A stretch of 33,747 bases of DNA from positions 1-33,747 of the IMG/VR virus record IMGVR_UViG_3300017978_000526; one strand, given 5' to 3'. A program made the translations under genes and the position numbers. Of the stretch, positions 4,314-29,876 are shown piece by piece. Source of the DNA: a virus (lineage: Duplodnaviria > Caudoviricetes). Below the pieces are notes generated by a model. It did not search any database, was not told the origin of the DNA, and worked only from the letters and a program-made list of their open reading frames with translations. The first letter of the stretch is position 1, and every line of letters starts with the position of its first letter.

Positions 4314-4813
4314 TTTGGCTGTGGCTCGGGCTCGCTGCGGTTGAGATCGGAGATCCGGCGCATCTCCCTTTCAAAATGCCGCTCCAGTTGCTCTTGAATC
4401 TCCAGCGGAGTGTCGAACATGATGGCCTCGGCTTCCAGCACCAGCTCTTCCAGCTTGCCGAGTTCGAGGCGGATCATCGTTTGCAATGGGTCGCCGAATA
4501 CCAGAGTGCTGAGGCCCAGCTCAATGATTTCCCGGTAGCCGTTGGGCTCGTGGTCGGCTGCTTTGGGAATGCCCAGGGCATTGGCCCAGGTCACGAATTC
4601 CAGAGCGATGCGCCGGAGCGTGTGGCGTGTGCCGGCACTGGCGGGCCGCAAGGTGAAGCGGCCCACTTGCACGGGGCCCATGCAGCCAGTGGCTACGGCT
4701 TCCATGGCGAGGGGATCGGCCCCGGATTTCCGGGCTTCTGCCTTGGCTCGCATTCCGGCGAGGTGCTCGTGCCAGGAAGCTTCCTGCGCACTCATCTGTG
4801 GTTTTTCAATCAT
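4244..4813 (-). CDS. Tail assembly chaperone (lambda gpG-like)
   Basis: Position between the putative tube and tape measure genes, plus the slippery site. Confidence 0.7.
   Translation of the reverse strand: MIEKPQMSAQEASWHEHLAGMRAKAEARKSGADPLAMEAVATGCMGPVQVGRFTLRPASAGTRHTLRRIALEFVTWANALGIPKAADHEPNGYREIIELGLSTLVFGDPLQTMIRLELGKLEELVLEAEAIMFDTPLEIQEQLERHFEREMRRISDLNRSEPEPQPKKKPDPEAPGASNETPIPAEATI
4307..4316 (-). promoter_or_regulatory. Programmed -1 frameshift slippery site (A9G, containing A AAA AAG)
   Basis: CCA AAA AAA AAG near the 3' end of the chaperone gene, just upstream of the tape measure gene. Confidence 0.8.
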
Positions 4814-4843
4814 CGCGTTTTTGGGGGTTGGGGATGCTATCGG

Positions 4844-5281
4844 TTAGGCATCAGAAATTTCCGTGAAGGTCGTGCCATCGTAGGTGAATGCGTTACCAGC
4901 TCCATCGTTGTTGATCATGTGATCCCACGAGGTGACTTTGATTGCCAGAGTGCGATGTTGGCCCTCGGCCCACTTGATCGAGATGGGAGGCATCACGCGG
5001 CCGGAGATGCCAGCCAGCGGGAACTCGATGAGTTCGGCAAAACCGGGGGCTTCGATCGAATCGCGGAACATCACCTCGAACTCAAATTGAAACTTCGGGT
5101 TTTGGAGGATGGCGGCTTTGAGTGAGCCAGCGGCAATGATTTCTTGCACATCCGCCTCACGGATGATGCTGGCGCTGATCACCTCTCCGTAGGTGTCGCC
5201 GAGCATGGCGGTGCCGAACACAAGATCTTCCGGATTGTCCGCAATGAAGATCTGTCCATCATATCGAGTTGTAAAAGCCAT
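4844..5281 (-). CDS. Putative major tail (tube) protein
   Basis: 145 aa, beta-rich pattern, directly upstream of the chaperone; positional call. Confidence 0.5.
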   Translation of the reverse strand: MAFTTRYDGQIFIADNPEDLVFGTAMLGDTYGEVISASIIREADVQEIIAAGSLKAAILQNPKFQFEFEVMFRDSIEAPGFAELIEFPLAGISGRVMPPISIKWAEGQHRTLAIKVTSWDHMINNDGAGNAFTYDGTTFTEISDA

Positions 5282-5293
5282 GGGGTAGTTTGG

Positions 5294-5788
5294 TTATAGG
5301 TGTGGGAAAACGAGTGGAATGGTGCGAGTGAATGGCGGCAGCGCCGCGGTTAGTTTCCAGTTGAGGACATGGGCCGCGAAGTTGGGCGTAGTTTCCAGCC
5401 ATTGGCTGCCAGCCGGGGCGAATCCGGCGGAGTCGGCACCGGTGCCGTTGGGGAAGCGGAGCGCCACCATGAAAGCGGTGGCGATGTTGATATAATCAGA
5501 AAACGGGCGGGTGCCGGTGGGGCTGGCTTGGAGCGGGTTCGGAGATTTTGCCAATCCCCTTGGCGCTTGGATCACCGTGGCCACCTGATGGTAAACCATT
5601 CCTTGGCGGGCATTCGGATGTTCGCCGAGACCTTCCCAATGCAGGACCAGTCTCCAGCTCCGGGGCGAGGCTGCCATGAATGCTTGCACCTCTTCCATGC
5701 TCTCTGCCATTTCCACTTGCCCACCCTGAGCGCCTACCTCCGCACGGGCGGCGGCGGTGACGGCGGTCATGAGTTGGGCGTAGGTCAT
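5294..5788 (-). CDS. Putative tail completion/terminator protein
   Basis: 164 aa upstream of the tube gene; positional call only. Confidence 0.4.
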   Translation of the reverse strand: MTYAQLMTAVTAAARAEVGAQGGQVEMAESMEEVQAFMAASPRSWRLVLHWEGLGEHPNARQGMVYHQVATVIQAPRGLAKSPNPLQASPTGTRPFSDYINIATAFMVALRFPNGTGADSAGFAPAGSQWLETTPNFAAHVLNWKLTAALPPFTRTIPLVFPHL

Positions 5789-5815
5789 GGCAAGGAGCGG
5801 CGGAGAGTTAGCAGA

Positions 5816-6298
5816 TCAGGAATCGGCAGGCTTATCGGCCTTGGCCTTCTTGGGCACCGGATGCGCGAGGGCATCGATCTCATTGATAAGAGCGCCCAGG
5901 AAGGTGCGCACCTCGGCGGGATCGAATTGCTCGGCGGCTTTGAGTTCGGCGGCATCATCTTCCAGATCGGCGAGATCCGTTCCCACGCTTTCCACCTCGC
6001 GGCGGATGGTGAGGATGAGACTGCCGACGCGTTGCCGCACGGCTGCCACCTTGGCGCGGCGGGCTTGCAGCGTATCCGGCACGGGATCGAATGTCGGGTT
6101 CCCGATCACCGGGGCAGGCTCCGCAGCGGGTGCGGGCGGGGTGTGCGCGGCCTTGAAGGCTTCGCGAGCTGCTACCAGCGGATCCGCAGGTTTGGGTGCG
6201 CGGACGATGGTAGGGCCTTGAGGTGGCTTGGTGGCCGGGCCGCCGAGGGCTTCGGCTACTTCCGATTTGGACGGGGTGGAGATGGGGCGTGTTTTCAT
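5816..6298 (-). CDS. Hypothetical protein (Pro/Ala-rich N-terminus, coiled coil)
   Basis: 160 aa ORF in the structural operon. Confidence 0.55.
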   Translation of the reverse strand: MKTRPISTPSKSEVAEALGGPATKPPQGPTIVRAPKPADPLVAAREAFKAAHTPPAPAAEPAPVIGNPTFDPVPDTLQARRAKVAAVRQRVGSLILTIRREVESVGTDLADLEDDAAELKAAEQFDPAEVRTFLGALINEIDALAHPVPKKAKADKPADS

Positions 6299-6330
6299 GA
6301 GTGGGAGAAAAGTGAGAGAGTTATCAAAAA

Positions 6331-7176
6331 TCAGAGCGTGCCCTCTCCGAGCACGATGATGTCGAGGACGGGTTTCCCATTGGAGACGAAGCGGAGGTCT
6401 GCCTCCACATTGGCACCCTCATCGATCATGATGTGCGTGCGGCCCGGCGTGAGCGATGGCCAGGCAACGGCATCGGAACCATCATCAAAGATATCAATGG
6501 AGTCACCATCCACTCCTCGCACGGTCATGATGAGCACGTGATTGGCCGTTTGCGTGGGTAGAGTTTCGCTGAAGGCATTTGCACCATTTCCTCCTTGGCG
6601 CTGCATAATCGGACCGCTAATCCCGGATTCTGTATTGGAGCTACTGGTGACTGCCGAGACCCCTAAGCCTGCGGTGATTGCCAGATTGAGTGTGGTATCG
6701 TTGGCGTATGCCAGTTTGGATGCCAGTATCACGTCTGCGCCGGATGACGTCACATCGAAGTGTGCGGCCACCGCTGCGGTGTCGGTGAGTTTTGCCGCCA
6801 CGGCTGCGGCGATCAAAGCGGCAGTTGTATGCACGCCCGTAGTCAGTGGCACGGAGATGGCGAGCGGAGATCCGGCCACTCGCGCCGAGGTAAGGGTGAG
6901 CGCGAGGTTGCCGGTGGATGTTGCCCCACTCGCTGCAGTGATCGTGGCGGTTTCGCGCTGCTGCGTTCCCGTATCGAAAGTTAATACTCCAGTTTCCAGA
7001 TTCAAAACGAGGGTTTGATCATCGCCGCTGAATTTCATCTGGGCTGCCCAGAGGACGTTCGCATCCGGAAATGCCAGGTTTTTGGTAAATGCGACGGATG
7101 CCGAGGAGGTGGCAAGCGGATCGACCACTTGCGGAGTGTCCTTGGCGGAAAAGGCGAGCTTGATGGAAGAGGTCAT
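6331..7176 (-). CDS. Putative virion structural protein
   Basis: 281 aa, Thr/Ala/Ser-rich beta-type sequence between head-tail genes. Confidence 0.55.
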   Translation of the reverse strand: MTSSIKLAFSAKDTPQVVDPLATSSASVAFTKNLAFPDANVLWAAQMKFSGDDQTLVLNLETGVLTFDTGTQQRETATITAASGATSTGNLALTLTSARVAGSPLAISVPLTTGVHTTAALIAAAVAAKLTDTAAVAAHFDVTSSGADVILASKLAYANDTTLNLAITAGLGVSAVTSSSNTESGISGPIMQRQGGNGANAFSETLPTQTANHVLIMTVRGVDGDSIDIFDDGSDAVAWPSLTPGRTHIMIDEGANVEADLRFVSNGKPVLDIIVLGEGTL

Positions 7177-7182
7177 GATTTT

Positions 7183-7623
7183 TTAGGCGGAAAGGTTCCC
7201 GGCTGAGTTATGGGTGCGGGAGGGTTCCGTGAAGGTCATCACGGAGCGTTTCGGTTTTTGGGCGGTGGGTGTCAGCGGGCTTTCGCCATCACCGATGCGA
7301 TCCAGATCCTTGCGGGCGGCGCGGGCGGAAACGAGGAAGGGGTTGGTTTCTTCCGTGCCGAGGCCCCGGCGGAGATAGAGAGTTTCCAGCACGAATAGGA
7401 GGCTGGCTTGCGCGGCCACCGCTGGCATGTCCTCGGGATCGAGCGGGGTGGTGTAGCGTTTGCCCAGGCGGGCGTCCACCTGGTTGGCGGCATCCTCCGC
7501 CACGGCTTGCCAGACTGCCTCATCGGCCACGCCGTCCTGGTCATCGTCCAAGGCTTCCGTCACAAAAGTGCTCGGGAGCTTGGCAGAGACTTGGGCAAGG
7601 GTGGTGTAAACGACTCGGGACAT
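7183..7623 (-). CDS. Mu gp36-like head-tail adaptor (DUF1320-like)
   Basis: YTTLAQV...EDAANQVDARLGKRYTTPL...LYLRRG pattern; follows the capsid gene; start revised to ATG 7623. Confidence 0.8.
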   Translation of the reverse strand: MSRVVYTTLAQVSAKLPSTFVTEALDDDQDGVADEAVWQAVAEDAANQVDARLGKRYTTPLDPEDMPAVAAQASLLFVLETLYLRRGLGTEETNPFLVSARAARKDLDRIGDGESPLTPTAQKPKRSVMTFTEPSRTHNSAGNLSA

Positions 7624-7638
7624 ATCTAGCAGGATGGA

Positions 7639-7698
7639 CAAATGCGGGACAGAGGAGCGGGAAAACGCGAGAAAACCCGCCGCCCCGCCCCGCATTTG
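7639..7698 (-). other. Long RNA stem-loop downstream of the capsid gene (terminator or stabiliser)
   Basis: CAAATGCGGG (7639-7648) and CCCGCATTTG (7689-7698) form a perfect inverted repeat; the inner arm pairs through G-U on the - strand transcript. Confidence 0.55.
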
Positions 7699-7735
7699 AG
7701 AATTTACAAATCAGGGATCAGGGTGGCTCCGGAGA

Positions 7736-8659
7736 TCAACCCGCTCCGGTGGAACCGATGATCATCATCGGCAAGCCATAGCCCGCATTCCAGCGGCCAT
7801 AAGCCTGATAGATGAAGATTTTCTTCAGGAGCACGTGCTCGCTCTTTGGATCATCCGCCGCAACGAACTCGGGGCGAACCTCGAATTGCACGATGAGCGG
7901 TTTCACTGCGCGGCCACTTTCCACCAGGAACCATGCAGTGGAAGAGGAAAGCCCATGGAGCACCATCACATCGAAGGTGCCGCGCAAGGTGTTGGTTTCC
8001 GTCGAACCATTGGCCACACTGATGTTTTCAGCGGTGGCAAGTTTGGTAGCAGTTTCACGCAGTGCGGGCGGCACTACCAGAGTGACACGCTTACCCATGC
8101 GGAGGCTCTTGCCTTTGGCGTTTACCATCTGTTCGAGCATGGCCCGAGCCGTGACGAAGGATGCCGCGGAGAGCGCCGGGGTGATCTTGTTGGAGAACGT
8201 CGGGGCGTTCTTGCTTTTGTCGGCAGGATCGTAGGGCTTGGCCGTGTGGAAGAAGCTCACACCGGTATAATCCTTGCCGGTGGTGAAACCGTCATTGAGG
8301 AGATCCGCCACGAGTTCCTCCGGATGGAAGCGGGCAATGGCTCCCATTTCGGAAAACATGGGGCGATAGACTCCCAGGGAATCGCGCTCGATGGCGGCGC
8401 GTTTCACGGGCACTGTGGATTCCCATTCCTTGTTGCGGATCGATAATCCGGCAGTAGCCAAATCCTCAAGTTTCACCTCGCCGATCAGTTCCTTCATGCC
8501 TGGCAGGCCGAGGAGCATCTCGTAGGTTTCGGACTCGGAAGAGGATTCCACTTCCATGGCGATAGGAGCCCATTCCGGAGTGGCTCCTTCATAGGCGGCG
8601 AGGAAAACGGCGCGGAAGCCATCAGTGGCAGCGGCGATGCGGGCGGGTGTGAGTGTCAT
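7736..8659 (-). CDS. Mu-like major capsid protein (gpT family)
   Basis: LPGMKELIGE, IRNKEWESTVPVKRAAIERDSLG, LVVPPAL, AWFL, RWNAGYG motifs. Confidence 0.93.
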   Translation of the reverse strand: MTLTPARIAAATDGFRAVFLAAYEGATPEWAPIAMEVESSSESETYEMLLGLPGMKELIGEVKLEDLATAGLSIRNKEWESTVPVKRAAIERDSLGVYRPMFSEMGAIARFHPEELVADLLNDGFTTGKDYTGVSFFHTAKPYDPADKSKNAPTFSNKITPALSAASFVTARAMLEQMVNAKGKSLRMGKRVTLVVPPALRETATKLATAENISVANGSTETNTLRGTFDVMVLHGLSSSTAWFLVESGRAVKPLIVQFEVRPEFVAADDPKSEHVLLKKIFIYQAYGRWNAGYGLPMMIIGSTGAG

Positions 8660-8691
8660 GACTTTTTATCAGTTATGGATGAGAAGGAAGG

Positions 8692-8722
8692 GCGGCGGTC
8701 CAGTGCGGGACTGGCCCGCCGC
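8692..8722. other. Intergenic hairpin upstream of the capsid gene
   Basis: GCGGCGGTCCAGT-5 nt-ACTGGCCCGCCGC, 13 bp stem with one mismatch. Confidence 0.5.
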
Positions 8723-8731
8723 AGTGGTTGG

Positions 8732-9283
8732 TTATGCAGTGATGAATCCGGAGAGGACCAAGGCGGCATGGATGGCGCGAACGTCATCCCCGATTTTTTC
8801 CGCCTCGGCAGCCAGACCGGAAAGGTTGGCGGAAGCTGCTGCGGCGGTGCCGTTTGTGCTCGTGAGCGTCACGGTCACTGGCTTTTCGGCATAGGCGGTA
8901 TCCACGATGGCGAGGCCATTTTCATCGAATCCGATGAGCTTGCCAGCTCGGCAGGTGCCCACGCTCGCCACGGTGTCCGGGGCGGTGGCGTAAACCATGC
9001 GGCCCACGTGTGCCTTGGTAGGGGCGTTGGTGTCATCCAACTCCAATGCATAGCATCCACGCTTGGCCAGCACTTCGAGATCACCTGCGCTGCCGCCGGT
9101 GTTATCGATGCCCTCCTCGGCACGGCCCACCACGTGGCCGGTCACGGTGGAGTCTGCTTCCACCGCATTGCCTGCGGAGTTCACTGCCACGAGGGCACCG
9201 GTAGCAATCACGGCGTCTGCCGCTGCGGGATGTTTCCCGGCATAGCTGCCGGGATGTTCTGAGAATTGATAGTAATCGCTCAT
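8732..9283 (-). CDS. Putative capsid decoration/cement protein
   Basis: Small Ala/Gly-rich protein between protease and capsid (IATGALVAVN...VVGRAEEGIDNTGG). Confidence 0.6.
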   Translation of the reverse strand: MSDYYQFSEHPGSYAGKHPAAADAVIATGALVAVNSAGNAVEADSTVTGHVVGRAEEGIDNTGGSAGDLEVLAKRGCYALELDDTNAPTKAHVGRMVYATAPDTVASVGTCRAGKLIGFDENGLAIVDTAYAEKPVTVTLTSTNGTAAAASANLSGLAAEAEKIGDDVRAIHAALVLSGFITA

Positions 9284-9352
9284 GGGATCTTTCTATGTGG
9301 TTTGGTTTCGGGATATCAGGGTGGCGGGATCAGGCAGGGTGGCGGGGGGGGG

Positions 9353-9808
9353 TTATGCCTTGGGATTGGCCTTGCGGTATTGTTCCTCGGTAAGGCCCAG
9401 CTGGCGGGCCACGGCTGCCTCATCGGCGGAAAGTGCCACCACCTTGGCGGCGGGCTTTTCCTTGGCTTGGGTGCTGCCAGCCAGATTCACCTCGCCAGGA
9501 GTGAGACGGGAGATGATGGAGCTGAGCACGGCCACCGGGGTGGATTCGATTTCCTCGGCGCTCAGCGGGATCACCTTGCCCTCGCGGGTGGCACGGTCCA
9601 CCAGGGCATTGCGCTCGATGTTATCGAGGCGAGCGGATAGCGCCACTTCGGTGGTTTTTCCCTCGGGCTTGGCAACGCCAGCGGCTTCGAGTTTGTCGTC
9701 GATGGCCTTGGCGATTTCCTCATCGGAGATTTCGCCGGATTCGCCAGGGGTGAGAGCGAGTAGCTTGATGAGCTTGTCGCGGAATGGATTGGTTTCTTCG
9801 TTCTGCAT
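9353..9808 (-). CDS. Putative nested in-frame scaffolding protein (Mu gpZ-like)
   Basis: In-frame ATG 9808 (MQNEETNPF) with an A-rich leader; known Mu I/Z arrangement. Confidence 0.5.
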   Translation of the reverse strand: MQNEETNPFRDKLIKLLALTPGESGEISDEEIAKAIDDKLEAAGVAKPEGKTTEVALSARLDNIERNALVDRATREGKVIPLSAEEIESTPVAVLSSIISRLTPGEVNLAGSTQAKEKPAAKVVALSADEAAVARQLGLTEEQYRKANPKA

Positions 9809-10351
9809 AACTGTTTTTGTTTCGGTTGAATCTGCGGAAAGGGCCGCAGTGCGTGCGGAGAGCGCCGCCACTGCCTCGCCGAATTCCATGCCGGCCACAT
9901 CGCCGCGCTGCGTGAGGGCCACGCTGGAAATCCACAAGGGGCGGCCATCGGCATCCAGGTGAACCACGGCGGAAACATCGGTATAGCTATCGGCATGGGC
10001 GGAGCCGTTGGCCGTGTAGGAAATAGCGGATAGATAAACTCCATCGCCGGGGATCACCTCGATCACTCCATTGCCAGGAGAGAGCCGGGGATCGGGAACA
10101 TAGTTCGGGTGACCCTTTACGGATTGGTGCTCGTAGTCCATCGGCACCCGGTCGCAGGCCACCAGCTCTTGATTTGCGGAGAGCGTCTGAGCGACTACCT
10201 CATCCACCAGAATACGGGCACCGGTAGTGCGGCCGATGTTTTCTCCCCATGAGAGAATTTTGGTGCGTTGCGGCAGTCCCGCATCGGCAGCGCCGCAGAA
10301 GGGCATCGCCATGGAGAGGACAGCTTTTTTTGCAACGGGTGCGTCGATCAC
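9353..10351 (-). CDS. Mu-like prohead protease gpI with C-terminal scaffold
   Basis: PMDYEHQS, YTDVSAV, SVALT motifs; C-terminal AVARQLGLTEEQY. Confidence 0.88.
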   Translation of the reverse strand: MIDAPVAKKAVLSMAMPFCGAADAGLPQRTKILSWGENIGRTTGARILVDEVVAQTLSANQELVACDRVPMDYEHQSVKGHPNYVPDPRLSPGNGVIEVIPGDGVYLSAISYTANGSAHADSYTDVSAVVHLDADGRPLWISSVALTQRGDVAGMEFGEAVAALSARTAALSADSTETKTVMQNEETNPFRDKLIKLLALTPGESGEISDEEIAKAIDDKLEAAGVAKPEGKTTEVALSARLDNIERNALVDRATREGKVIPLSAEEIESTPVAVLSSIISRLTPGEVNLAGSTQAKEKPAAKVVALSADEAAVARQLGLTEEQYRKANPKA

Positions 10352-10884: not shown

Positions 10885-11151
10885 CTATCCGAGCACGTTG
10901 TCGATGCGCATCTTGGCCGTGCCCTCGCGGGTGATCTCATAAGTGGCCCCGGATTGTTTCGCCTGGTGAGCCACTACCTCCTCGATCCGATCCGCACTCC
11001 CAAGCATCGTGGGCAGGCTGCCACTTCGCAGGGCGAATGCAGCGCGGTTGCCAAGCCAGGAGGTTTCCACTGGCCAGCTGGTATCCAGATACTTGGCCGT
11101 GAATCGGGCGCCCGCCCCTTCTTTTCGGAGTTCTACGGTGATGATCATCAT
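10885..11151 (-). CDS. Small protein, candidate immunity partner of MuF
   Basis: 88 aa; ATGA overlap with the MuF stop. Confidence 0.5.
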   Translation of the reverse strand: MMIITVELRKEGAGARFTAKYLDTSWPVETSWLGNRAAFALRSGSLPTMLGSADRIEEVVAHQAKQSGATYEITREGTAKMRIDNVLG

Positions 11152-12749
11152 GGCGTGGGAGGGTTGGGGATGTTGTCAAAAAACGAATGCACCAGGGCGA
11201 ATGTCTCGCGGTTCTCTTTCGCGTGATCGTGCTCCTCGGGATTCATGATCGTGGTGATGGTCTCCGGCGTTTCCCATAACTCATAGTAACGCGTGGGCAC
11301 TTCCAGCCCGCCGGGCTTGCCCTTCTCGAATCCATACTCGCGGCCCGCGTAGAGGTCCCACCACTTATCCCGGCGATATCCGCCGATGAGGGTATCCCCC
11401 GCAGTGCGTGCGGCGTAGTGATCGGCAATCGCCTGGCGATACGCCTTGGCAGCCTCGCCCCGGGAACTCATGTGAGCCCAGTGCATCAATTCATGCGACA
11501 ACACGCGGCGCAGCTCGCGGCGGCGTGCTTCGCCCTTCACGCCCTTGAATCCGAGCGTGGCAGTAGTCACGCGGGCCGTGTGAGTGCGCGGATCATAGTC
11601 GCCATTTGCTCCGCCGATTTCATGGTCCACAATCTTGATGGTCACCTTGGGCAGGCTCTCGGCCATCGCCCGGGGCATGATGCCCAGGAGATCGGAAACA
11701 ATCCGGCGGATCTCTTTTTCCGTGAGGGCTCCACGGCTACGGGCCCCGATGATTTTCTCCACCTTTTCAGATTCCTTCACGGGATCGGCCACGCGCAGGG
11801 ATGCCTTGAGATTGGCAATGTCCTTGCGGTCCCACTTATCCTTGGTGTCCAGGCGCAGGGCAGAGATGGCAGCGGCAAACGTATCCGGCCTGGTCACCCC
11901 TGGCAGTCGCGGGCCTTGCGTCGGGGCGGCTCCGTTGAAATAACTCAGCAGGTCCCGGCCACTCTCGATTTCCATGTTGGATGCCCATGCCTGGAAGTCT
12001 GCGGCGGTGGTCGGGTCCCAGCGTTTTTTGATCTCCTCATAGGGCAAGCTCGCATCGCGTGCGGACCATTCATAAGTGCCTCCCCGCTCCTTGGGTGTGC
12101 GCACATCCACATTGGTAGAGAGCCCGCGATTGAGAGATCCGGTTTCGAGTTGTTTGAGGTTCGGCCCTTCCAGCACGCGGCGGTTTTCCGGCGCGCGGGG
12201 TTGATCTTTTGCATACTCCTCATCGCGCTCCTCTTCCGTCATCTCCACCACCTGGCAGCGGCAATTCCATTCCCATGGCGGAGTGTGCTTTTGCCAAAAT
12301 GGATGATTGGCCGGAAGGATGATCTCATTGAGGGCACGATGGCTGGCGCGGACCTTGCCATCCTTGGTGCTGAGGTATTGGCGAAAAGGGAACACATCCG
12401 CCATCTCATCCATGATGCGGGCCTGGGTGGCCGAGTAAGCGGCAAACGCATGATGAGAGAGCAAGAGCTGCGCACGCGCTGCGGCAGCCTCCGGCGTAAA
12501 CCATGGGGAAATCTTGGCCATCACCTCGCCCTTCACCTCATCCCAATCCGCACCGGCAGGAATCTTCGCGATCTCATCCCGCACGCCCTTGAGCACATCG
12601 TGATCCTCAATGCCGGTGATGGTAAACGCACGGGATTTGAGTTCATCGGGCAGCTGGTCAAACACATCACGCGCCACCGCTGGCTTGTCTGCAATCGCGC
12701 GGCGAGCGGTATCATGAGGGACGGGGCGAGTGACGTAGGCGGGCTGCAT
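11148..12749 (-). CDS. MuF (gp30-like) minor head protein with C-terminal HExxH metallopeptidase-like domain
   Basis: RAFTITG, DGKVRASHRAL, HPFWQKHTPPWEWNCRCQV; C-terminal VLSHELMHWAH. Confidence 0.88.
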   Translation of the reverse strand: MQPAYVTRPVPHDTARRAIADKPAVARDVFDQLPDELKSRAFTITGIEDHDVLKGVRDEIAKIPAGADWDEVKGEVMAKISPWFTPEAAAARAQLLLSHHAFAAYSATQARIMDEMADVFPFRQYLSTKDGKVRASHRALNEIILPANHPFWQKHTPPWEWNCRCQVVEMTEEERDEEYAKDQPRAPENRRVLEGPNLKQLETGSLNRGLSTNVDVRTPKERGGTYEWSARDASLPYEEIKKRWDPTTAADFQAWASNMEIESGRDLLSYFNGAAPTQGPRLPGVTRPDTFAAAISALRLDTKDKWDRKDIANLKASLRVADPVKESEKVEKIIGARSRGALTEKEIRRIVSDLLGIMPRAMAESLPKVTIKIVDHEIGGANGDYDPRTHTARVTTATLGFKGVKGEARRRELRRVLSHELMHWAHMSSRGEAAKAYRQAIADHYAARTAGDTLIGGYRRDKWWDLYAGREYGFEKGKPGGLEVPTRYYELWETPETITTIMNPEEHDHAKENRETFALVHSFFDNIPNPPTP

Positions 12750-12751
12750 GG

Positions 12752-12899
12752 CTAGGCGAGTTTGCGGAATGGGGTGATGATATCAGATTGCTGCATGGCT
12801 CTATCAAGCGGGCTTTGCACAGTATTGGAGCCTGCGGTGTGCAAGTAAAGCGCGGTGGTCTCGATGCTCGTGTGTCCCATTTGCTCTTGGATCACTTTG
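12752..12899 (-). pseudogene. C-terminal 48 aa remnant of an integron-integrase-like tyrosine recombinase
   Basis: KVIQEQMGHTSIETTALYLHTAGSNTVQSPLD resembles the IntI end TVQELLGHSDVSTTMIYTHV...VRSPLD; truncated exactly at a G|TT. Confidence 0.75.
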
Positions 12900-13201
12900 T
12901 TCTGCCGAGGATCGAGCGCCCACTCTGGTTTGAAGGATCGACCGTCCACATACTCGCGGAGGTTTTTCGCCCGGATCATGCGATAAACACACCCGCAGTT
13001 TGAGTATTCGGCGTAGTCGTTGGCTTCGTTTTGGAGGATGGCGTTTTGCGCTCGGGTGCAGTGATCCCAGCGCGGATTGGAGACGATTTTCCACCGTTCC
13101 CCGTCGCGGAGTTTCGTCACAATCACCCGGAAGAATGGCAGAACAAGTCGCTCCTGAGCAACCGCGCCCGCCGTGTTATTTGAGTCTGATTTTGATTTCA
13201 T
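12752..13201 (-). CDS. Cassette 1 protein fused in frame to the integrase remnant
   Basis: ATG 13201 lies in the attC1 loop; codon 101 is the crossover AAC. Confidence 0.6.
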   Translation of the reverse strand: MKSKSDSNNTAGAVAQERLVLPFFRVIVTKLRDGERWKIVSNPRWDHCTRAQNAILQNEANDYAEYSNCGCVYRMIRAKNLREYVDGRSFKPEWALDPRQNKVIQEQMGHTSIETTALYLHTAGSNTVQSPLDRAMQQSDIITPFRKLA

Positions 13202-13258
13202 AGATTTGTGAGTTGCGGCACGCGCTCTCGGCGCGGTGCCAGAGCTAGGCGTTAGCCG
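13137..13258 (+). repeat. attC-type site 1
   Basis: GGCAGAAC-AAGTC-GCTC[C]TG[A]GCA[A]CCGCGCC...GGCGCGGTGCCAGAGC-TAGGC-GTTAGCCG; 3 extrahelical bases. Confidence 0.88.
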
Positions 13259-13532
13259 GAGAATGAGCAGGGCACTTGCCTCCCCATGCTTTCGCGCCGG
13301 GATGCGACGAGTGAGAGCACTTGTAGGCGTTGTTCCAGTGGTCCCAGACGGGTGTGCATCCGTCCTCGCGGGGGACAGGTTCCCAGCGTCGGTGACAGCA
13401 GCGGCACTCGGCCCACGTTCCACCGTCAGCGTATTTCCCGCGCTCCAGATCGTGACCCGACCACCAGCACCGAAGACGGCTAACAAGGCGTGGCTGGAGC
13501 AACGCGGCCCCGGTGTGTGTTTGATTATCCAT
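13245..13532 (-). CDS. Cassette 2 Cys/His-rich small protein
   Basis: 95 aa with CWWSGH and CRCCH; starts in attC2 and stops in attC1. Confidence 0.65.
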   Translation of the reverse strand: MDNQTHTGAALLQPRLVSRLRCWWSGHDLERGKYADGGTWAECRCCHRRWEPVPREDGCTPVWDHWNNAYKCSHSSHPGAKAWGGKCPAHSPANA

Positions 13533-13603
13533 GGTAGTTACTGAGGTTTGAGAGTGGTTGGAGTGGCGCTCTCGCCGCGTGCCAGCACATCGGCGTTCGG
13601 TGG
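13477..13603 (+). repeat. attC-type site 2
   Basis: CGGCTAAC-AAGGC-GTG[G]CTGG[AG]CA[A]CGCGGC...GCCGCGTGCCAGCAC-ATCGGC-GTTCGGTGG. Confidence 0.88.
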
Positions 13604-13918
13604 ATTAAATTCGCGGCCACACAGCATGCACTTGCCACGATCCGCATACCGCAGGTGATCGTCCGGCGTGCAGTATGGACCACATTCGGTTCCCACTGCC
13701 CTCTGTTGCGCTTCCGTAAGCGGATGGCGCTCCGTTGGTTTCGCTTGCCGCCAGAGACGGCATTCAGTGGCGCACCCATCGTCGCAGATGTGCATAGGGT
13801 TGTTTTTGCAGGGTGTTGGCTTGTGATACGGCTGATATTCATCCGGCGAATCGTGCCACTCGTAAGCGCCCGGTTCATCGACTCCATCATCTAGCTCTAT
13901 TCCGTTTACGATTCTCAT
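13538..13918 (-). CDS. Cassette 3 second gene, Cys-rich hypothetical protein
   Basis: Start revised to ATG 13918 (ATGA overlap); ends NADVLARGESATPTTLKPQ inside attC2. Confidence 0.65.
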   Translation of the reverse strand: MRIVNGIELDDGVDEPGAYEWHDSPDEYQPYHKPTPCKNNPMHICDDGCATECRLWRQAKPTERHPLTEAQQRAVGTECGPYCTPDDHLRYADRGKCMLCGREFNPPNADVLARGESATPTTLKPQ

Positions 13919-14163
13919 GGTTTTGGTTGGTATTTGAGTCCTTTCAGCGCAAGCCCGAAGCGGGCGCGTATGATTTTTCCGCAGCGGTGGCAGGCGCATT
14001 CCACACCTTCATCCGTGCGCGTCATCAGTGATTTTCCATTGCGGTCGCACGGATACACTGCGTGACCGACTAGTCCGCACACGAACCACCGAACAAGACA
14101 GTGGACAGGAATCACCATGAGCGGTGATGTCCTGCGTGATTGACTGGCCGTGTCCTCGCTCAT
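13915..14163 (-). CDS. Cassette 3 first gene, Zn-ribbon-like protein
   Basis: CGLVGH...CHRCGK; starts in attC3. Confidence 0.6.
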   Translation of the reverse strand: MSEDTASQSRRTSPLMVIPVHCLVRWFVCGLVGHAVYPCDRNGKSLMTRTDEGVECACHRCGKIIRARFGLALKGLKYQPKP

Positions 14164-14191
14164 GGTGATCCGTCACTTTTTGCGTTCAGCC
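14086..14191 (+). repeat. attC-type site 3
   Basis: CCACCGAAC-AAGAC-AGTG[G]AC[A]GGA[A]TCACCATGAGCG...CGCTCATGGTGATCCGTCACT-TTTTGC-GTTCAGCC. Confidence 0.92.
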
Positions 14192-14702
14192 GAGAGATTT
14201 GATACAGCGCCATGAGCGCCGCCCCGAGCGGGGAGAAGTATTGGAGATCATAGACCGCAACCCCGAGTCCTTCATTCCACGTCGTTGGGGCGTCATTGGA
14301 TAGCAGCACCACGCCAGCGTCTTCGCCTTCGGTGACGATGACTTTTTCCATGGCATCCCCGATTTTCTGGAGTCGTGCCTCCAGTCGGTCGATGTCGTTT
14401 TTCAGTCGTTCCCGATGACAAATAAGATGGCGGATTTGCTCATCGCGAGCCGCGATTTTTTGTTCGGGCGTTTCCGTTTGTGCAAGATTATTGGTGATAT
14501 CCTGCCAATAAGCATTCAGCACGCAGCCCGTGGCTTGAGCGTTGTTGTCGTAGTGGAGTTCCACTTCGGAGGATGACCAGATTGGATCATCTCCATCCCG
14601 GTCGATTTGGAGCGTGACAGGGATCTGGTGCGGGATTTGCCCGCATTCGAGCGCGTACTCGATGGCGCGATCTAATTCTTCTTTAAGTTGTTGCAGGTCC
14701 AT
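14160..14702 (-). CDS. Cassette 4 hypothetical protein
   Basis: 180 aa; ends NAKSDGSP inside attC3. Confidence 0.7.
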   Translation of the reverse strand: MDLQQLKEELDRAIEYALECGQIPHQIPVTLQIDRDGDDPIWSSSEVELHYDNNAQATGCVLNAYWQDITNNLAQTETPEQKIAARDEQIRHLICHRERLKNDIDRLEARLQKIGDAMEKVIVTEGEDAGVVLLSNDAPTTWNEGLGVAVYDLQYFSPLGAALMALYQISRLNAKSDGSP

Positions 14703-15007
14703 GGTTGGCTTATTTTATCGTTCTGCCGAGAGAATCTATACCATCCTCGGGCGTTGTATTGGTTGGTTCGATGTTCGAGATACCCCTTCTGGCAGAGCGC
14801 CCTGAAATAGTTCATGGCGGCATTTTGCGAAGAGCTTCCAAGGAATTCTTGCAGCTCGTAGCTTGATGGCAGCCGATCTTCGGCCTCATGGAATTTCTTC
14901 AGGAACTCCATCACCGCAACTTGCTTGCCCGTCAAAAGAGGCTGAACAAGACGGTGGACGGAATCGCCCATCTGCGGGCTGTCAGCGGTTGTTGGTGGCA
15001 GTGGCAT
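14672..15007 (-). CDS. Stand-alone LexA-type winged-helix DNA-binding protein
   Basis: LTGKQVAVMEFL...LPSSYELQEFLGSSSQNAAMNYFRALCQKGYLE resembles the LexA N-domain; no peptidase domain. Confidence 0.75.
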   Translation of the reverse strand: MPLPPTTADSPQMGDSVHRLVQPLLTGKQVAVMEFLKKFHEAEDRLPSSYELQEFLGSSSQNAAMNYFRALCQKGYLEHRTNQYNARGWYRFSRQNDKISQPWTCNNLKKN

Positions 15008-15062
15008 TATCGTGTCGGTTGAGTGTTAGTGCCGGGCGATCCGTCACCTTGGACGTTGAGTG
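14940..15062 (+). repeat. attC-type site 4
   Basis: GGCTGAAC-AAGAC-GGTG[G]ACGGA[A]TCGCCC...GGGCGATCCGTCACC-TTGGAC-GTTGAGTG. Confidence 0.9.
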
Positions 15063-15087
15063 GACCGAAAACGGCCCTTTTAAAAAA

Positions 15088-15139
15088 TACGCACGTTTGC
15101 GTAAATAGTTGTTGACCTTTACGCAGTATTGCGTAAGTT
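15088..15139 (+). promoter_or_regulatory. Cassette 5 promoter with two palindromic operators
   Basis: TTGACC (15112)-16 bp-TAAGTT (15134); TACGCA-N4-TGCGTA at 15088-15103 and 15120-15135. Confidence 0.7.
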
Positions 15140-15183
15140 GTCCTCGTCAGCGGCAATGAGGCCAACGACCAACTACTAAGACA

Positions 15184-15375
15184 ATGACCACTACCACCAT
15201 CACCACCTCCGCCACCCTCTTCGACGCCCAAGGCTACATCCAGCAGCACGGCGTTGAGATCAGCGACCACGGCGACACCATCGGCATCAACGGCAGCGAG
15301 CACCTCAAGTCTGACCTCATCATTGAGGACAACAAGATCACCTCCACCCTCGCTGGTTGGGAACTCACTTGGTAA
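15184..15375 (+). CDS. Cassette 5 small hypothetical protein
   Basis: 63 aa with strong C-ending codon bias, downstream of the promoter. Confidence 0.65.
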   Translation: MTTTTITTSATLFDAQGYIQQHGVEISDHGDTIGINGSEHLKSDLIIEDNKITSTLAGWELTW

Positions 15376-15378
15376 GCC

Positions 15379-15612
15379 ATGAGAGTGACGACCAACCACA
15401 GCGCGTCGTCCTACGGGCAGCCCGTCATCCTCGCGGATGACGGGTCGCTTATGGACTACGCCCCAGGGATCAAGGCCATCCGCTCCAAGCTCGGCTGGAG
15501 CACTCAGCAGCTGGCCGACGCGTGCGGCGTCTCCCGTCGCACCGTCGAGGGCTGGGAGCAAGACCGGACGCCCACAGCGGCGGCTCTCAACGTCATGGCC
15601 TCGCTCGTCTAG
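15379..15612 (+). CDS. XRE/Cro-type HTH protein
   Basis: IKAIRSKLGWSTQQLADACGVSRRTVEGWEQDRTP. Confidence 0.85.
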   Translation: MRVTTNHSASSYGQPVILADDGSLMDYAPGIKAIRSKLGWSTQQLADACGVSRRTVEGWEQDRTPTAAALNVMASLV

Positions 15613-15620
15613 CAAAAAGA

Positions 15621-15725
15621 CACTCAACAAGGCACGGCAGGACAACCGCCATGAGCGGTCAAGTCCTCCGTGCTTTTTTACGTCCAGTGCGCTCATGTCG
15701 GTGTCTGCGTTTTATCGTTCGGTGG
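15621..15725 (+). repeat. attC-type site 5
   Basis: CACTCAAC-AAGGC-ACG[G]CAG[G]ACA[A]CCGCCATGAGCG...CGCTCATGTCGGTGTCTGCGT-TTTATC-GTTCGGTGG. Confidence 0.88.
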
Positions 15726-15947
15726 ATTTATTTTCTCCATCACGGTGCCGTTGCATCCGGTCCATCCGCACGCGGTCGGCAGTTCATCTCGGGGGAACTC
15801 GGCCATATCGCGGCAGGTGTCGCATTGAGCAATCACCACCGAACCAGCCGTGGGATGCAACCGATCCTCGGCTTCTCTTTCGCGCATATCGTCCACAATG
15901 CTTTCCATCTGGTTTGACCATTTCTCGGTGTCTCGGCGCGTGCTCAT
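15693..15947 (-). CDS. Cassette 6 small Zn-binding-like protein
   Basis: CDTC...CGWTGC; ATGA overlaps at both ends, inside attC5 and attC6. Confidence 0.6.
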   Translation of the reverse strand: MSTRRDTEKWSNQMESIVDDMREREAEDRLHPTAGSVVIAQCDTCRDMAEFPRDELPTACGWTGCNGTVMEKINPPNDKTQTPT

Positions 15948-15990
15948 TTGCTTTCCTTTCTCATCGGTGCATCCACATCAGCGTTCGGAG
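15836..15990 (+). repeat. attC-type site 6
   Basis: CCACCGAAC-CAGCC-GTG[G]GATGCA[A]CCGAT...ATCGGTGCATCCAC-ATCAGC-GTTCGGAG. Confidence 0.85.
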
Positions 15991-16225
15991 GAATTGGCGC
16001 TTCGAAGTGCGGGCAGATCACAGCGGCCTTGAGCGGCATCACAGCGTTTCGATGGAGGAAGATCGTCATGTCCACTACTTGGGGCGCTCGCTCGCGTGGG
16101 TAGCGGCAGCGGACCGTTGCGGTCAGGTGCGTCATGTATTCCGCGTGGTGGCGGCATTGCAGGCACGAAGACGGAGAACAAGGGGCTGATGCCCGACCCT
16201 CAATAGCTGTGCTGTTAATTTCCAA
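15944..16225 (-). CDS. Cassette 7 Cys-rich protein (start possibly disrupted)
   Basis: CLQCRH...CPHFE; TTG start lies at a rearrangement junction. Confidence 0.5.
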   Translation of the reverse strand: MEINSTAIEGRASAPCSPSSCLQCRHHAEYMTHLTATVRCRYPRERAPQVVDMTIFLHRNAVMPLKAAVICPHFEAPIPPNADVDAPMRKESK

Positions 16226-16341
16226 GGCGTGGCTGGAGCAACGCGGCCCCGGTGTGTGTTTGACTATCCATGGTAGTTACTGAGGTTTGAGAGTGGTTGG
16301 AGTGGCGCTCTCGCCGCGTGCCAGCACATCGGCGTTAGCCT
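16172..16341 (+). repeat. Composite attC-type site 7 containing a 114 bp copy of attC2
   Basis: Orphan left arm CGGAGAAC-AAGGG..., then 16223-16336 equals 13484-13597 with one mismatch. Confidence 0.8.
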
Positions 16342-16909
16342 GACTGGATTTAAGCATCCGGCGCACGACCTTGCAGATGGTCATGGGCAGTTTCTCGCCA
16401 CTGTCCATCATTGGCCTTCCATCGGCCATGACGATTTCCACCAGGTGCTTTCCGTCGTCGCATTTGCGGACGCTCCACGTTTTGATTTTGTCGGCCAGTT
16501 CCTCGAACAGCCGGATTGCGCAGTGGAGATTCTCGGATCGTCCGTAGCACACGCGTTTGATTTGATAGGACACCACCGGGCGGAAGTCATCGGCGGTTGC
16601 ATCGGCGGGCAGTCCGTATTGTTTGCGGATCTCGCGCGCCCAGTTCTCCCACATCTGCGGCCACAGCGATTCCTTCTTTTTCCGGGAGTTGAGCAGGCGG
16701 ACCATGGATTCGGTTCGCTCGCGTTCACGGGGCGAATCGTAGGGCGTGCCGAATCGCTCGAATTGCACTCCATTGAAGCACAGGACGATGAAGTCGGCGG
16801 ATTTCTCACCGAGCAATTCGGTGAGTTCGTAGTCGATTGGGTTTCCGGAGATGGTGAGTTCAGGTTCCATTTTTTCGGGCGTTTGGGGTAATTCGGGCAA
16901 GGCTAACAT
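16277..16909 (-). CDS. Cassette 8 hypothetical protein
   Basis: 210 aa; ends NADVLARGESATPTTLKPQ. Confidence 0.7.
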   Translation of the reverse strand: MLALPELPQTPEKMEPELTISGNPIDYELTELLGEKSADFIVLCFNGVQFERFGTPYDSPRERERTESMVRLLNSRKKKESLWPQMWENWAREIRKQYGLPADATADDFRPVVSYQIKRVCYGRSENLHCAIRLFEELADKIKTWSVRKCDDGKHLVEIVMADGRPMMDSGEKLPMTICKVVRRMLKSSQANADVLARGESATPTTLKPQ

Positions 16910-16920
16910 GGTGTTATGAT

Positions 16921-17127
16921 TTACCGAATCGAAATCCTCACCTCCACCGCAGTGGGCACCCGTCCATTCACCGTCGCACCTTCCACGTGCTTCGCGGCGA
17001 TGCGCAATGCCTGGGCGAGATCCGGGGCCACGAGGCTCCCATTCATAGGCAGGGTGGTGGTGGCGATGGCGTCCTTGTGGATGAGCTTGATCCGCAGGCG
17101 GTGCGTAGGGCTTGGTTCTTTTGGCAT
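16921..17127 (-). CDS. Hypothetical protein
   Basis: 68 aa in the early operon. Confidence 0.5.
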   Translation of the reverse strand: MPKEPSPTHRLRIKLIHKDAIATTTLPMNGSLVAPDLAQALRIAAKHVEGATVNGRVPTAVEVRISIR

Positions 17128-17139
17128 GGCTGGTTCTTT

Positions 17140-17168
17140 CTGATAACTGATAACTGATAACTGATAAC
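17140..17168. repeat. Heptamer tandem repeat (CTGATAA)x4
   Basis: Read directly; intergenic. Confidence 0.9.
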
Positions 17169-17172
17169 CGGC

Positions 17173-17736
17173 TTACCTCTCCCAGGGCTCCCGGTAGGGC
17201 AGGCCCACGAACTCGAAAACATCGCGCTCATCGGTCACCTGGTGCACCGCTCCATTCGGGCCGGAGAATCCGGCACCGTAGGGATTCCAGCGCCAGCCCT
17301 TATCCACGGCGGCTTTGGCGATGCGCATGTTGGACTCCTTGGAGCCGGTGCGGCAAACGAGGTAGTTATACCAGGAGCTTTCCACCGTGGCGAAAAAATC
17401 CACCGGCATCCCCGTGGGCAGATGGGTCATGAGTTTGTTTTTGGGGCCGCAGGCAGTGTGGCCGGTTTCCCCTTTGCGGAGTTCGAGCGTGCCGGCATCC
17501 ATCATCTCGCGGATGGCAAGGTCCACCAGATCCACCATTTTTTTCCCGAACATGTCGCCGGGGATTTGGCGCTCCTCGCGGATGGGAATGTATAAAATCT
17601 CGATGTCCCCCACCTCTTGTTTCCGGCGGCGCAAAGAGCCTGCCACGATCACGCGCTCGCAGCCCTCGCCGATTGCCTCCAGGCATTCGCGGCAGACTTT
17701 GAGTGCCAGGGCACGGGGATATCGGGTCTTGCTCAT
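17173..17736 (-). CDS. Minimal family X DNA polymerase (Pol beta-like nucleotidyltransferase)
   Basis: VAGSLRRRKQEVGDIEIL, VDFF, TGSKESN, DERDVFEFVGLPYREPWER. Confidence 0.88.
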   Translation of the reverse strand: MSKTRYPRALALKVCRECLEAIGEGCERVIVAGSLRRRKQEVGDIEILYIPIREERQIPGDMFGKKMVDLVDLAIREMMDAGTLELRKGETGHTACGPKNKLMTHLPTGMPVDFFATVESSWYNYLVCRTGSKESNMRIAKAAVDKGWRWNPYGAGFSGPNGAVHQVTDERDVFEFVGLPYREPWER

Positions 17737-22491: not shown

Positions 22492-24288
22492 TCATGCTTC
22501 TTCCAAAGCTGCTTGCAGGCGGCGGATCTCGGCGGCGGCATCCACTGGCATGGCGCGGGATGAGATAGCGGGCATGATCTCGCGGCTCGGGCGGATGGAG
22601 CGGATGCTATCCGGAATGGCTCCCACTTCCGCAGCGGGTGCGGTGCTCTCGTGGCGTTCCAAGTCACCGGCCTTGGCGATGCCGCCAGCGCCATTCATGG
22701 CCACTGCCTCGCGGGTGCCGGAGGGTTGCGGCATGCCTGCGGCGGCACGGATGGCGCGGAAGGTAGTCGCTGCTGCAGCGCTTGCCTTCTTCCGCACGAT
22801 CATGTGCGGCGTGAGGATCGAACTGGCATTGAACTGCGGGGCCAGTCCCATCTCCGGCGCGCAGGGGATGAGCACCTCGCCCATGCGCCAGCCATTGCGG
22901 TTGCGCGCGGAGCGGTCGCCATTGCAGACCCAAGCGCCGAGATCGGGCCGGGCCGGATCGTAGGCAATGAGCACCTGGTGGCCGTTCTCAAAATGGATGC
23001 CATCCCGCACGCCGTTGAGTTTGAAATACATCTTGGGCCAGCCATTGCCGGGGCTCACGTTCACCGTGCCGGCACGCACGGTGCGTTGGCACTTGTAGGG
23101 GCGGAAATACCACTCTTGCGAGGGGTGGAGCGGGCTCGTATGCCAGCCCAAGCGGGCTACCAGATCATCCGGGGAGACTCGCTCATTGAGATGCTCGCGC
23201 ATCATCGGGTTGGAGTTGATTTTGCAGGCTGCTTCCTCGTGTAAAATCGAAGACTTTTCCTGTGGAAGGAAGCCCAGCGTCAAGGGGTCCACCCCTGTGG
23301 CTTGTGCTTGGCGCAGGCGCCGGGTGGCCTCCTCGAACTCGCCACGGCTGCGGCCAATATCCGTGCCTGTGTGGCCAAGCCAGCGTTGGAGCACATTGAA
23401 TCCGCCCTCAATCCCACCTTTGCCTTTGGATTTGAAAACGTGGTCAATGAGCATGATATCCCTCAAGTCCCCCCAGCGTCCGGACATGCCTTGCACTTCG
23501 ATTCCATGCACTGCGGTGCCTTCCCAAGATCCGCGCTCCAGGCGCAGGCGGCGGGGCAGGCCCCACGCACGCACCAGCCGCGCGATGTAGCGCACAATGT
23601 CCTCGCCACGGTAGGCATCACGCTCGCGGCCGATGTGATCGAACCCGAGCCAACGGGCGGCAGCCAGGTCACGAGCGGCGAGCACCTGGCGGCCAAGCAT
23701 TAACTCGCCCGGGGCAGGGTCACGGAAAACATAAGGTTGGTTTGCGGAATAGTCATCGAGTTCCCATGTCTCGCCTGGAAGGATCTCGCGGTGCGTGCCA
23801 TCGGCGAGGATCTCATACATGCCCCGGCGCGTGATCATCTCCGTTTGTTGGGCATGCTTTGAGCCTCTATGTAAAGCCTTCTCCTCTGCCGTTACCCGGA
23901 ATGCGCGGCGAACACTCTCAGGCCAGTCTTCTTTCCGTCCGTGGATGAGTGCCTTTTCCCGAATTCTTTCGATAACTTCGCGGATCTCCGGGCGCACACG
24001 TTCATCATGGGCAAAGAAGTAGGCCGCTACGTTTAGGCTTTCCTTGGTGCTTCGATAGAAACGAGCTAAGCCGATCTCCAGTTCGTTGGGATCAAAAACA
24101 ACCGGGCGGCCTGTGGCCTTGGGCGTGAGTGCCTCATCCACATCCCCACCGCACTCCGCCACGCGGGCAAGCCAGCGGGCGAGGGTAGCATTGGGCACTC
24201 CCAAGCGGCTCGCTGCTTTCTTGCAGCTGAGGCCGTTGGTGGTGAGTTCCAGAGCGAGGATGAGTTTGGATCGTTCCATGGGTTCCAT
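22492..24288 (-). CDS. MuA-like DDE transposase
   Basis: N-terminal HTH; WELDD...WGLPRRLRLERG...KGGIEGGF core; C-terminal YDPARPD; context. Confidence 0.85.
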   Translation of the reverse strand: MEPMERSKLILALELTTNGLSCKKAASRLGVPNATLARWLARVAECGGDVDEALTPKATGRPVVFDPNELEIGLARFYRSTKESLNVAAYFFAHDERVRPEIREVIERIREKALIHGRKEDWPESVRRAFRVTAEEKALHRGSKHAQQTEMITRRGMYEILADGTHREILPGETWELDDYSANQPYVFRDPAPGELMLGRQVLAARDLAAARWLGFDHIGRERDAYRGEDIVRYIARLVRAWGLPRRLRLERGSWEGTAVHGIEVQGMSGRWGDLRDIMLIDHVFKSKGKGGIEGGFNVLQRWLGHTGTDIGRSRGEFEEATRRLRQAQATGVDPLTLGFLPQEKSSILHEEAACKINSNPMMREHLNERVSPDDLVARLGWHTSPLHPSQEWYFRPYKCQRTVRAGTVNVSPGNGWPKMYFKLNGVRDGIHFENGHQVLIAYDPARPDLGAWVCNGDRSARNRNGWRMGEVLIPCAPEMGLAPQFNASSILTPHMIVRKKASAAAATTFRAIRAAAGMPQPSGTREAVAMNGAGGIAKAGDLERHESTAPAAEVGAIPDSIRSIRPSREIMPAISSRAMPVDAAAEIRRLQAALEEA

Positions 24289-26716: not shown

Positions 26717-27115
26717 ATGCCGTTGCCAGCTCATGTTGTCTTGCTCTGCCTCATCGCTCCGTTTCTCGCGTCTGCCGCTCCGGGATCACCTCCGGCGGAT
26801 ACTGATCCGCAGTCTTATCAATCCATCGGTTGGCTTCTGGTTGGGCTTGGATCTTTGGCTGTCACCATCAATCAGATCCTCGGCGTATTCGCCAAGGTGC
26901 GGGAACTCAAATCCCCCACTCCCGGCAGCGTCTCTGGTGATCGCGTGAAGGCATTGGAGGATCGCATGCACACCATGGAGATTTCCGTGGCGAATCACAT
27001 GGGCGGCATCAAGAGCCAGTTCGATTCCATTTCCCAAACGCTCACCAACCTCCAAGCAGATTGGAACTATGCCATCGGCAAGATCGATGGCCGCAGCGAA
27101 GCCTCCGGCAAATAA
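26717..27115 (+). CDS. Membrane plus coiled-coil protein (Mu gp25-like position)
   Basis: Two hydrophobic segments and a C-terminal coiled coil. Confidence 0.55.
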   Translation: MPLPAHVVLLCLIAPFLASAAPGSPPADTDPQSYQSIGWLLVGLGSLAVTINQILGVFAKVRELKSPTPGSVSGDRVKALEDRMHTMEISVANHMGGIKSQFDSISQTLTNLQADWNYAIGKIDGRSEASGK

Positions 27116-27134
27116 CTCTCACCCAATAAACGCC

Positions 27135-29874: not shown

Positions 29875-29876
29875 CC

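Follow-up and report, generated by a model that had tools for sequence, protein, structure and literature searches.

A probable phage-borne integron cassette array with mostly backward genes, and a likely self-removed integrase gene, in a Mu-like phage

The viral record IMGVR_UViG_3300017978_000526 (Duplodnaviria; Caudoviricetes) was analysed over its whole length of 33,747 nucleotides (nt), referred to here as the window. It encodes the Mu-like proteins TnpB, Gam, gpF, protease I, gpT and gp36, with matches to phrog_296, PF07352, PF04233, PF10123, PF10124 and PF07030, which backs an earlier sequence-only reading of this DNA as a Mu-like transposable phage. The host is likely a member of the Verrucomicrobiota, as assigned from genome contigs. 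Between a Mu gpF-like head morphogenesis gene (11148-12749, - strand, PF04233) and the last early gene lies a cluster of integron attC recombination sites with their cassettes, bordered on the gpF side by a remnant of an integron integrase gene (intI).

The window holds seven attC sites at 13142-16336, six of them intact and one composite, all in a single orientation. The whole window was scanned on both strands for the pattern AAC-spacer-bulged arm-loop-arm-spacer-GTT, after a first, loose hairpin scan had proved too unspecific and was left unused. Six sites were found, all within 13142-15985 and all with + as their top strand, with none on the other strand. In shuffles of the region 12701-17000, one site appeared in 2 of 150 and never more than one. 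The six sites have the attC anatomy, an R''-L''-loop-L'-R' palindrome with an unpaired spacer and two to three extrahelical bases on one arm, and bases are repeatedly left unpaired near arm positions 3-4, 7-8 and 10-12. A covariance model was built from host-family chromosomal attC sites alone (36 of the 46 listed), to stand in for the models of IntegronFinder and HattCI. It scored five sites at 42.7-54.9 bits: attC 1 (13138-13257, 54.9 bits), attC 2 (13478-13601, 42.7 bits), attC 3 (14088-14190, 49.7 bits), attC 4 (14941-15061, 46.6 bits) and attC 5 (15622-15723, 48.3 bits). The two halves of the composite site scored 18.4 and 14.6 bits, and attC 6 (15838-15989), which has a long loop, was found by the pattern scan. 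All six intact sites have the - strand as their bottom strand. Between them, scan and model recover the seven hairpins of attC anatomy, six intact and one composite, that had been noticed from the sequence alone, with attC 6 missed by the model. Rfam gave no relevant match.

The sequence-only reading had also proposed that the left end of each cassette is the reverse complement of its own R'' box. Seven of the eight ends match in this way over 8-9 nt, every pair at the place proposed, and cassette 7 is the exception already recognized there, matching its own R'' over only 4 nt. By comparison, each R'' box matches the next G|TT of the assembled site over only 3-6 nt, and just 2 of 40320 re-pairings of the ends reach seven of eight complementary pairs.

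All units below are given on the + strand, with their genes on the - strand unless stated otherwise. Cassette 1 (12900-13251) holds a gene of 149 codons, including an IntI tail, that starts at an ATG at 13201. Cassette 2 (13252-13595) holds the gene 13245-13532, and cassette 3 (13596-14184) two overlapping open reading frames (ORFs), 13915-14163 and 13538-13918. Cassette 4 (14185-15055) carries the ORFs 14672-15007, encoding a LexA-type winged helix, and 14160-14702; a spacer and GTT box without arms at 14714-14728 is likely a collapsed attC that fused two cassettes, and the fused cassette moves as a whole unit. Cassette 5 (15056-15717) is the exception in orientation, with the + strand ORF 15184-15375 and a + strand helix-turn-helix (HTH) gene of the HTH_3 type (15379-15612) behind an AT-rich palindromic stretch. 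It is also spanned by a 229-codon - strand frame, which may be spurious because the cassette carries the + strand HTH gene. Palindromes of cassette 5 lie at 15088-15103; a homolog of its HTH gene is found in locus L177 (3063-3434) and in L181, where it adjoins an oppositely oriented attC and is not part of the main array, and run X8 contains the same cassette with its first gene replaced. Cassette 6 (15718-15983) holds the gene 15693-15947, with a purine-rich stretch before the ATG in the attC loop. Unit 7 (15984-16223) comprises a frame without start codon (15944-16222) and the R'' box and first arm of an attC. The last unit, from R'' to R'' (16224-16907), consists of a copy of the attC 2 core and gene 8 (16277-16909), and appears to have inserted inside the start of gene 7. 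Searches of the cargo proteins against PHROGs, Pfam, NCBIfam and PADLOC gave no match beyond HTH-type domains. The Atlas gave only a lead for gene 8 (Phage ABA sandwich, 37-40% of members, in mainly viral clusters) and no match for gene 4a.

The polarity of the sites can be read from their extra unpaired bases, which lie in the arm next to the + strand AAC. According to the available text of Nivina et al. 2016 (PMC5027507), the recombined strand carries its extrahelical bases on the arm opposite its 5' AAC, and the - strand is therefore the bottom strand. This is the strand of the phage genes, and in all units of the window except cassette 5 the genes run against attC polarity. As a result of this reversal, the start codon lies inside the gene's own attC loop and the end of the upstream gene in the same attC: an ATG opening a - strand frame is present within all six intact sites, and the upstream frame stops inside the site in seven of seven, with stop-to-start gaps of -4, -4, -4, -1, +5, +5 and +43 nt. 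Because most cassette genes oppose attC polarity, the array does not work like a bacterial array driven by the cassette promoter Pc. A scan of 12600-17300 for a Pc-type promoter gave no sigma-70-like match at the threshold used, a result of little weight in this host.

Orientation was compared between 13 phage loci and 18 chromosomal loci, picked for adjacent sites. The longest ORF is reversed in 36 of 44 phage units and 6 of 56 chromosomal units, and, once duplicates and poor end matches are removed, in 30 of 36 phage and 5 of 41 chromosomal cassettes (p 1.6e-10). A bottom-strand ATG whose frame stays open to the end of the site occurs in 47 of 51 phage attC sites and 25 of 68 chromosomal ones. 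With the host-trained model, 58 matches were obtained in 37 phage loci, and in 57 of them the bottom strand is the coding strand. Homologs of the gene 8 protein (n = 24) can be aligned as far as the residues that the R' box encodes, and beyond that point their tails differ, as would follow if the neighbouring attC supplies the tail.

The integrase remnant comprises the C-terminal 48 codons of an integron integrase (12752-12899, - strand; TIGR02249 positions 281-314 of 315, E 6e-6), fused in frame to the gene of cassette 1. Its 48 residues are 100% identical to the ends of two full-length proteins, P0084 and P0085. No intact integrase was found among the 63 ORFs scanned, no attI is present in the window, and the array is a cluster of attC sites lacking integron integrases (CALIN). 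The remnant ends at a G|TT junction (12899-12901, + strand), where relatives read G|AT, which is a GWT secondary site within intI. The window has lost most of intI, together with attI and any first cassettes. In runs X2, X3, X5 and X6, contigs about 96% identical to the window match the backbone up to 12899 and from 16907, and do not match the array between. In these four of the eight runs, the sequence past 12899 continues with G|AT and then encodes the missing part of P0084. Runs X7 and X8 part from the window at 12892, and in X7 an intI variant follows; X4 and X10 are uninformative on this junction. GWT is the secondary-site consensus of IntI1-3, according to the accessible portion of 10.1101/2022.09.11.507474. 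Recombination of an attC with such a secondary site likely removed about 276 codons of intI together with attI. The integron had been read as the accessory-gene region of the phage at the end of its early operon; the attC-type sites and exchange at G|TT stand, but the system is crippled here, with 48 codons of intI left and attI gone, and its genes are mostly reversed.

Relatives had been named as the place to look for an intact intI and for changes in cassette order or content. Prophages with an intact intI at this position were indeed found, and exchange at G|TT was seen in related DNA, namely in the X10 contig and in the locus pairs L054/L055 and L177/L178. In X10, a contig from another sample, the stretch 14182-15055 (cassette 4) is identical with other flanks and is followed by one extra G after its right end. 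Together with the seven of eight complementary ends, this different context of cassette 4 corroborates the movement of cassettes as units via G|TT. L177 and L178, phages whose IntI belongs to the same clade as that of the window, are 99.4% identical from attI onward with different first cassettes, and cassette 2 of L177 equals cassette 7 of L178 over 741 of 741 nt. L054 and L055, 94-95% identical, have a common 28-nt attI and then differ.

A gpF profile search gave 110 loci, of which the best named ones come from Verrucomicrobiota. A full intI lies near gpF in seven distinct Mu-like loci, upstream in L007, L022, L030 and L054 and downstream in L004, L005 and L050. Among 29 gpF loci searched with the covariance model, 12 had an attC match, and most relatives had none. 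Related loci carry an AAT-N4/5-G|TT attI at 28-49 nt from the start of intI (8/8 measured), and in intact relatives the coding-strand order is early genes, cassette genes, compact attI, intI and gpF. The same IntI clade occurs in one Mu-like, one integrase-type and one head-protease-type phage, with methyltransferase and PAPS reductase cassettes. Scans of viral contigs with gpF or P0084 as single proteins, and with a 19-nt attC 2 pattern, gave no match.

Several further site arrangements were seen in other loci. L007 contains, first after attI, a 37-nt empty cassette with complementary ends (8910-8947). In L013, an AAC-5 nt-GTT site at 9040-9060 lies between two genes and lacks both arms. L193 (KX853513, virus Rctr41k; 4680-10097) has a third layout, an IntI-like gene followed by about seven attC-like sites on the same strand with forward genes. 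The terminal site of L030 was considered as a half site and rejected, since the model shows a whole site.

The full-length integrases P0084 and P0085 keep the IntI-specific insertion and the catalytic R, K, H, R, H and Y, which are invariant in all 17 aligned proteins, and the best match of the full-length IntI to a solved structure is VchIntIA (2A3V, E 3e-37). The residues K209, W219, P232 and H240 of VchIntIA hold the extrahelical bases (PMC3053210, from the part of the paper at hand), and the equivalents of K209 and W219 are kept in both proteins. In a quick tree of 80 proteins, P0084 and P0085 fall in an 18-row clade without a chromosomal row (Shimodaira-Hasegawa-like approximate likelihood ratio test, SH-aLRT, 97), in which 9 of the 18 rows are database proteins labelled phage, taken without inspection of their contigs. 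Most of this clade has 7 residues before RWH, and host chromosomal IntI usually have 12-13 residues, with a DP-type motif, before RRHH. The phage clade has an altered attC-binding hairpin and includes no sampled chromosomal IntI. Other Mu-borne integrases branch elsewhere in the tree, and that of L054 groups with chromosomal ones. It therefore seems that intI entered phages on more than one occasion.

The far-end unit 16224-16907 has a history of its own. Its stretch 16224-16336 is a second copy of the attC 2 core, identical at 112 of 113 nt; gene 7 lacks a start codon, and no hairpin belongs to gene 8 itself. A single insertion explains all three features, and we consider this history fairly probable. 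When 16224-16907 is removed in silico, the backbone ATG is placed in frame on gene 7, giving 93 codons, and run X8 has an ATG at the matching place in a similar site. The hairpin at 16224-16336 probably belongs to a neighbour, because a gene 8 homolog reads through a different arm. With a 2-nt overlap at both ends, the unit looks like the product of top-strand recombination or of a microhomology event. Top-strand attC recombination is rare for IntI1 in the consulted parts of 10.1101/2022.09.11.507474 and PMC5027507, and the former places it at background level, which argues against an integrase origin of this unit.

On this evidence, the array very probably consists of phage-borne integron cassettes with mostly backward genes; the integrase itself likely cut out its own gene and the docking site. 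In related DNA, cassettes are exchanged as units from G|TT to G. This fits recombination of the folded bottom strand by IntI; to judge from the extrahelical bases, that strand is the coding strand here. With no Pc promoter, the array would form a single coupled stretch within the early transcript, and the last residues of a protein would depend on the neighbouring cassette, consistent with the variable tails of the homologs. Recombination between G|AT inside intI and the G|TT of cassette 1 would then have cost the phage about 276 intI codons and attI. The array would be frozen from that point unless an integrase of the host or of a co-infecting phage acts in trans, in which case cassettes could be lost and no more could be added at attI. 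Such an enzyme is plausible because all five of five hosts that carry related prophages have a chromosomal IntI scoring over the cut-off, as do 69 of 151 genomes in one host family.

Several results weigh against this interpretation. The 12899 junction of the window is found in none of the eight runs compared and hence rests on one contig. The intI deletion in L055 kept attI and is not at G|TT, showing that intI can be lost by other routes. The full-length IntI score 197-210 bits, below the TIGR02249 cut-off of 265, lack an equivalent of P232 and have W in place of H240, the two residues that together hold one extrahelical base. The host-trained model gives attC 6 (144 nt) only 6.7 bits (E 3). 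Folding had been proposed as a check in the sequence-only reading; by folding energy most sites are no better than shuffles (z -2.3 to +0.8, 14 folds), and the lowest-energy fold of attC 5 is a different hairpin. The case consequently rests on anatomy and comparison, not on stability. Canonical bottom-strand recombination would not yield a unit such as 16224-16907, whose two ends are both at R'' (AA|C). Finally, genes are forward in 6 of the 36 phage cassettes, and the longest ORF is a crude proxy for orientation that counts cassette 5 as reverse despite its + strand genes.

Three other explanations were considered. The polarity might be the mirror image of the one given above, with the + strand recombined, crossover at R'', each hairpin belonging to the upstream gene, and the genes truly forward. 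End complementarity alone cannot separate the two polarities, the AA|C ends of the 16224-16907 unit are what crossover at R'' would leave, and the hairpin of the IntI clade is altered. Nevertheless, the extrahelical bases are placed as in the host chromosomal sites, with the coding strand matched in 57 of 58 cases, each moved unit extends from the G|TT at R' to a G and takes with it the hairpin that precedes the gene, and attI lies beside intI with its G|TT on the same strand as R'. We therefore regard the mirror polarity as very improbable. Alternatively, the array might be a passenger, a decaying fragment from a single capture of a host chromosomal integron, comparable to the captures of Qi et al. 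2023. The fit of the sites to a model trained on host attC, the IntI over the cut-off in 69 of 151 host-family genomes and the nesting of the L054 integrase among chromosomal ones are in line with capture. This idea is largely refuted, and we give it a very small chance, as the genes are oriented opposite to those of chromosomal cassettes, the IntI of the window belongs to the 18-row clade without a chromosomal row, the backbones are conserved while the arrays differ, and the gene 8 protein resembles mainly viral clusters, the last being a lead only.

A further possibility is that the array is real and the phage IntI inactive, so that variation and the loss of intI came about by microhomology, slippage or phage recombinases acting on hairpin repeats. 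The collapsed or half sites at 14714-14728 and 16177-16223, the 2-nt overlaps of the 16224-16907 unit, the L055 deletion away from G|TT and the sub-threshold IntI score would all fit such a history. It explains poorly that exchanges begin exactly at G|TT after attI between partners that share only 3-4 nt, that the 12899 junction, where the overlap is 1 nt, coincides with a GWT as well as with a cassette boundary, and that the catalytic residues are invariant. Overall, this explanation appears very unlikely.

On either side of the array the phage backbone is fixed. The gpF-like gene is directly downstream of intI and common to relatives up to 12899. The far end (16907-17127, - strand) consists of the last early gene (16921-17127) and an ATG (16907-16909), where relatives join other terminal units; at least two other such units are joined to the backbone at or near this ATG (16907-16913) in relatives. 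The ATG is preceded on the - strand by AAC and 5 nt, a spacing as in the phage attI sites. Just upstream of the last early gene, a CTGATAA tandem heptamer (17140-17170) varies in copy number among close relatives, which have lost 7 or 14 nt or gained 7. The early region also contains a truncated PolX-like gene (17173-17736; PF14791, with NF006375 below cut-off), and a transposase candidate before tnpB (22492-24288) has only HTH-level and weak IS630 matches. On the - strand, the early genes are followed by those for head and tail (119-25985), and lysis and terminase genes are on the + strand past the likely repressor region (27069-33462). This gene order differs from that of phage Mu.

Taken together, the observations can be joined into a broader picture, which we put forward tentatively, at somewhat under even odds. 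Phages of Verrucomicrobiota may have their own integron lineage. A phage-specific IntI with a remodelled attC-binding hairpin would be common to tailed phages of the Mu-like, integrase-type and other kinds, and their backward cassettes would form a pool apart. The attC would serve as a translation-coupling module that gives a gene its start and its neighbour its tail, self-excision of intI would fix the accessory set, and the top strand would occasionally be used. Integrons are seen as bacterial devices, and their phage copies as rare captured pieces; here the integron has a fixed place in a transposable phage, cassettes are reordered among near-identical phages, and expression is solved by backward genes that start inside the recombination hairpin. 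The attC loop is called of unknown function in the portion of PMC11641012 available to us, and the reversed layout gives it a testable role. The clade also offers a natural IntI variant at the residues that bind extrahelical bases, and through such a system phages likely exchange accessory genes, methylases among them.

Phage integrons have been published before. As far as the text at hand of Qi et al. 2023 (PMC9892861) goes, 21 of 10,705 phages contain integron parts, and five phage attC sites proved to be substrates of IntI1. The system described here resembles theirs in its attC arrays in phages, sometimes with intI and attI, and in methyltransferase cargo, as in L178-L180. It differs in that the complete integrons of the same text are fragments of class 1 or chromosomal integrons, and no transposable phage, reversed gene or phage-specific IntI appears there. 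Shewanella M16-3 was considered as a published Mu-like case and rejected, being a P2-like phage that has a LexA box and whose cassettes are forward. A literature search (subscription journals, bioRxiv supplements and the Dryad annotation file of Qi et al. lay outside it) gave no report of reversed phage cassettes, and we found none of the reversed form. The 12899 junction resembles attG secondary-site recombination in its GWT consensus and bottom-strand attC partner (10.1101/2022.09.11.507474); the accessible portion of that work concerns cassette insertion in E. coli by IntI1-3, whereas the event here would be a deletion that destroyed the integrase gene. The sedentary chromosomal integrons of the host family (that of Haloferula luteola) are similar in having a G extrahelical base at arm position 3-4 with more near 7-11, self-complementary cassette ends and crossover at G|TT, but their genes are forward in 36 of 41 cassettes and their attC sites are longer (median 119 nt, compared with 90 nt in phage). 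Mu-like early operons have small variable genes between the replication and head genes that differ among relatives; unlike in that variable region, turnover here is tied to site-specific att sites and an integrase.

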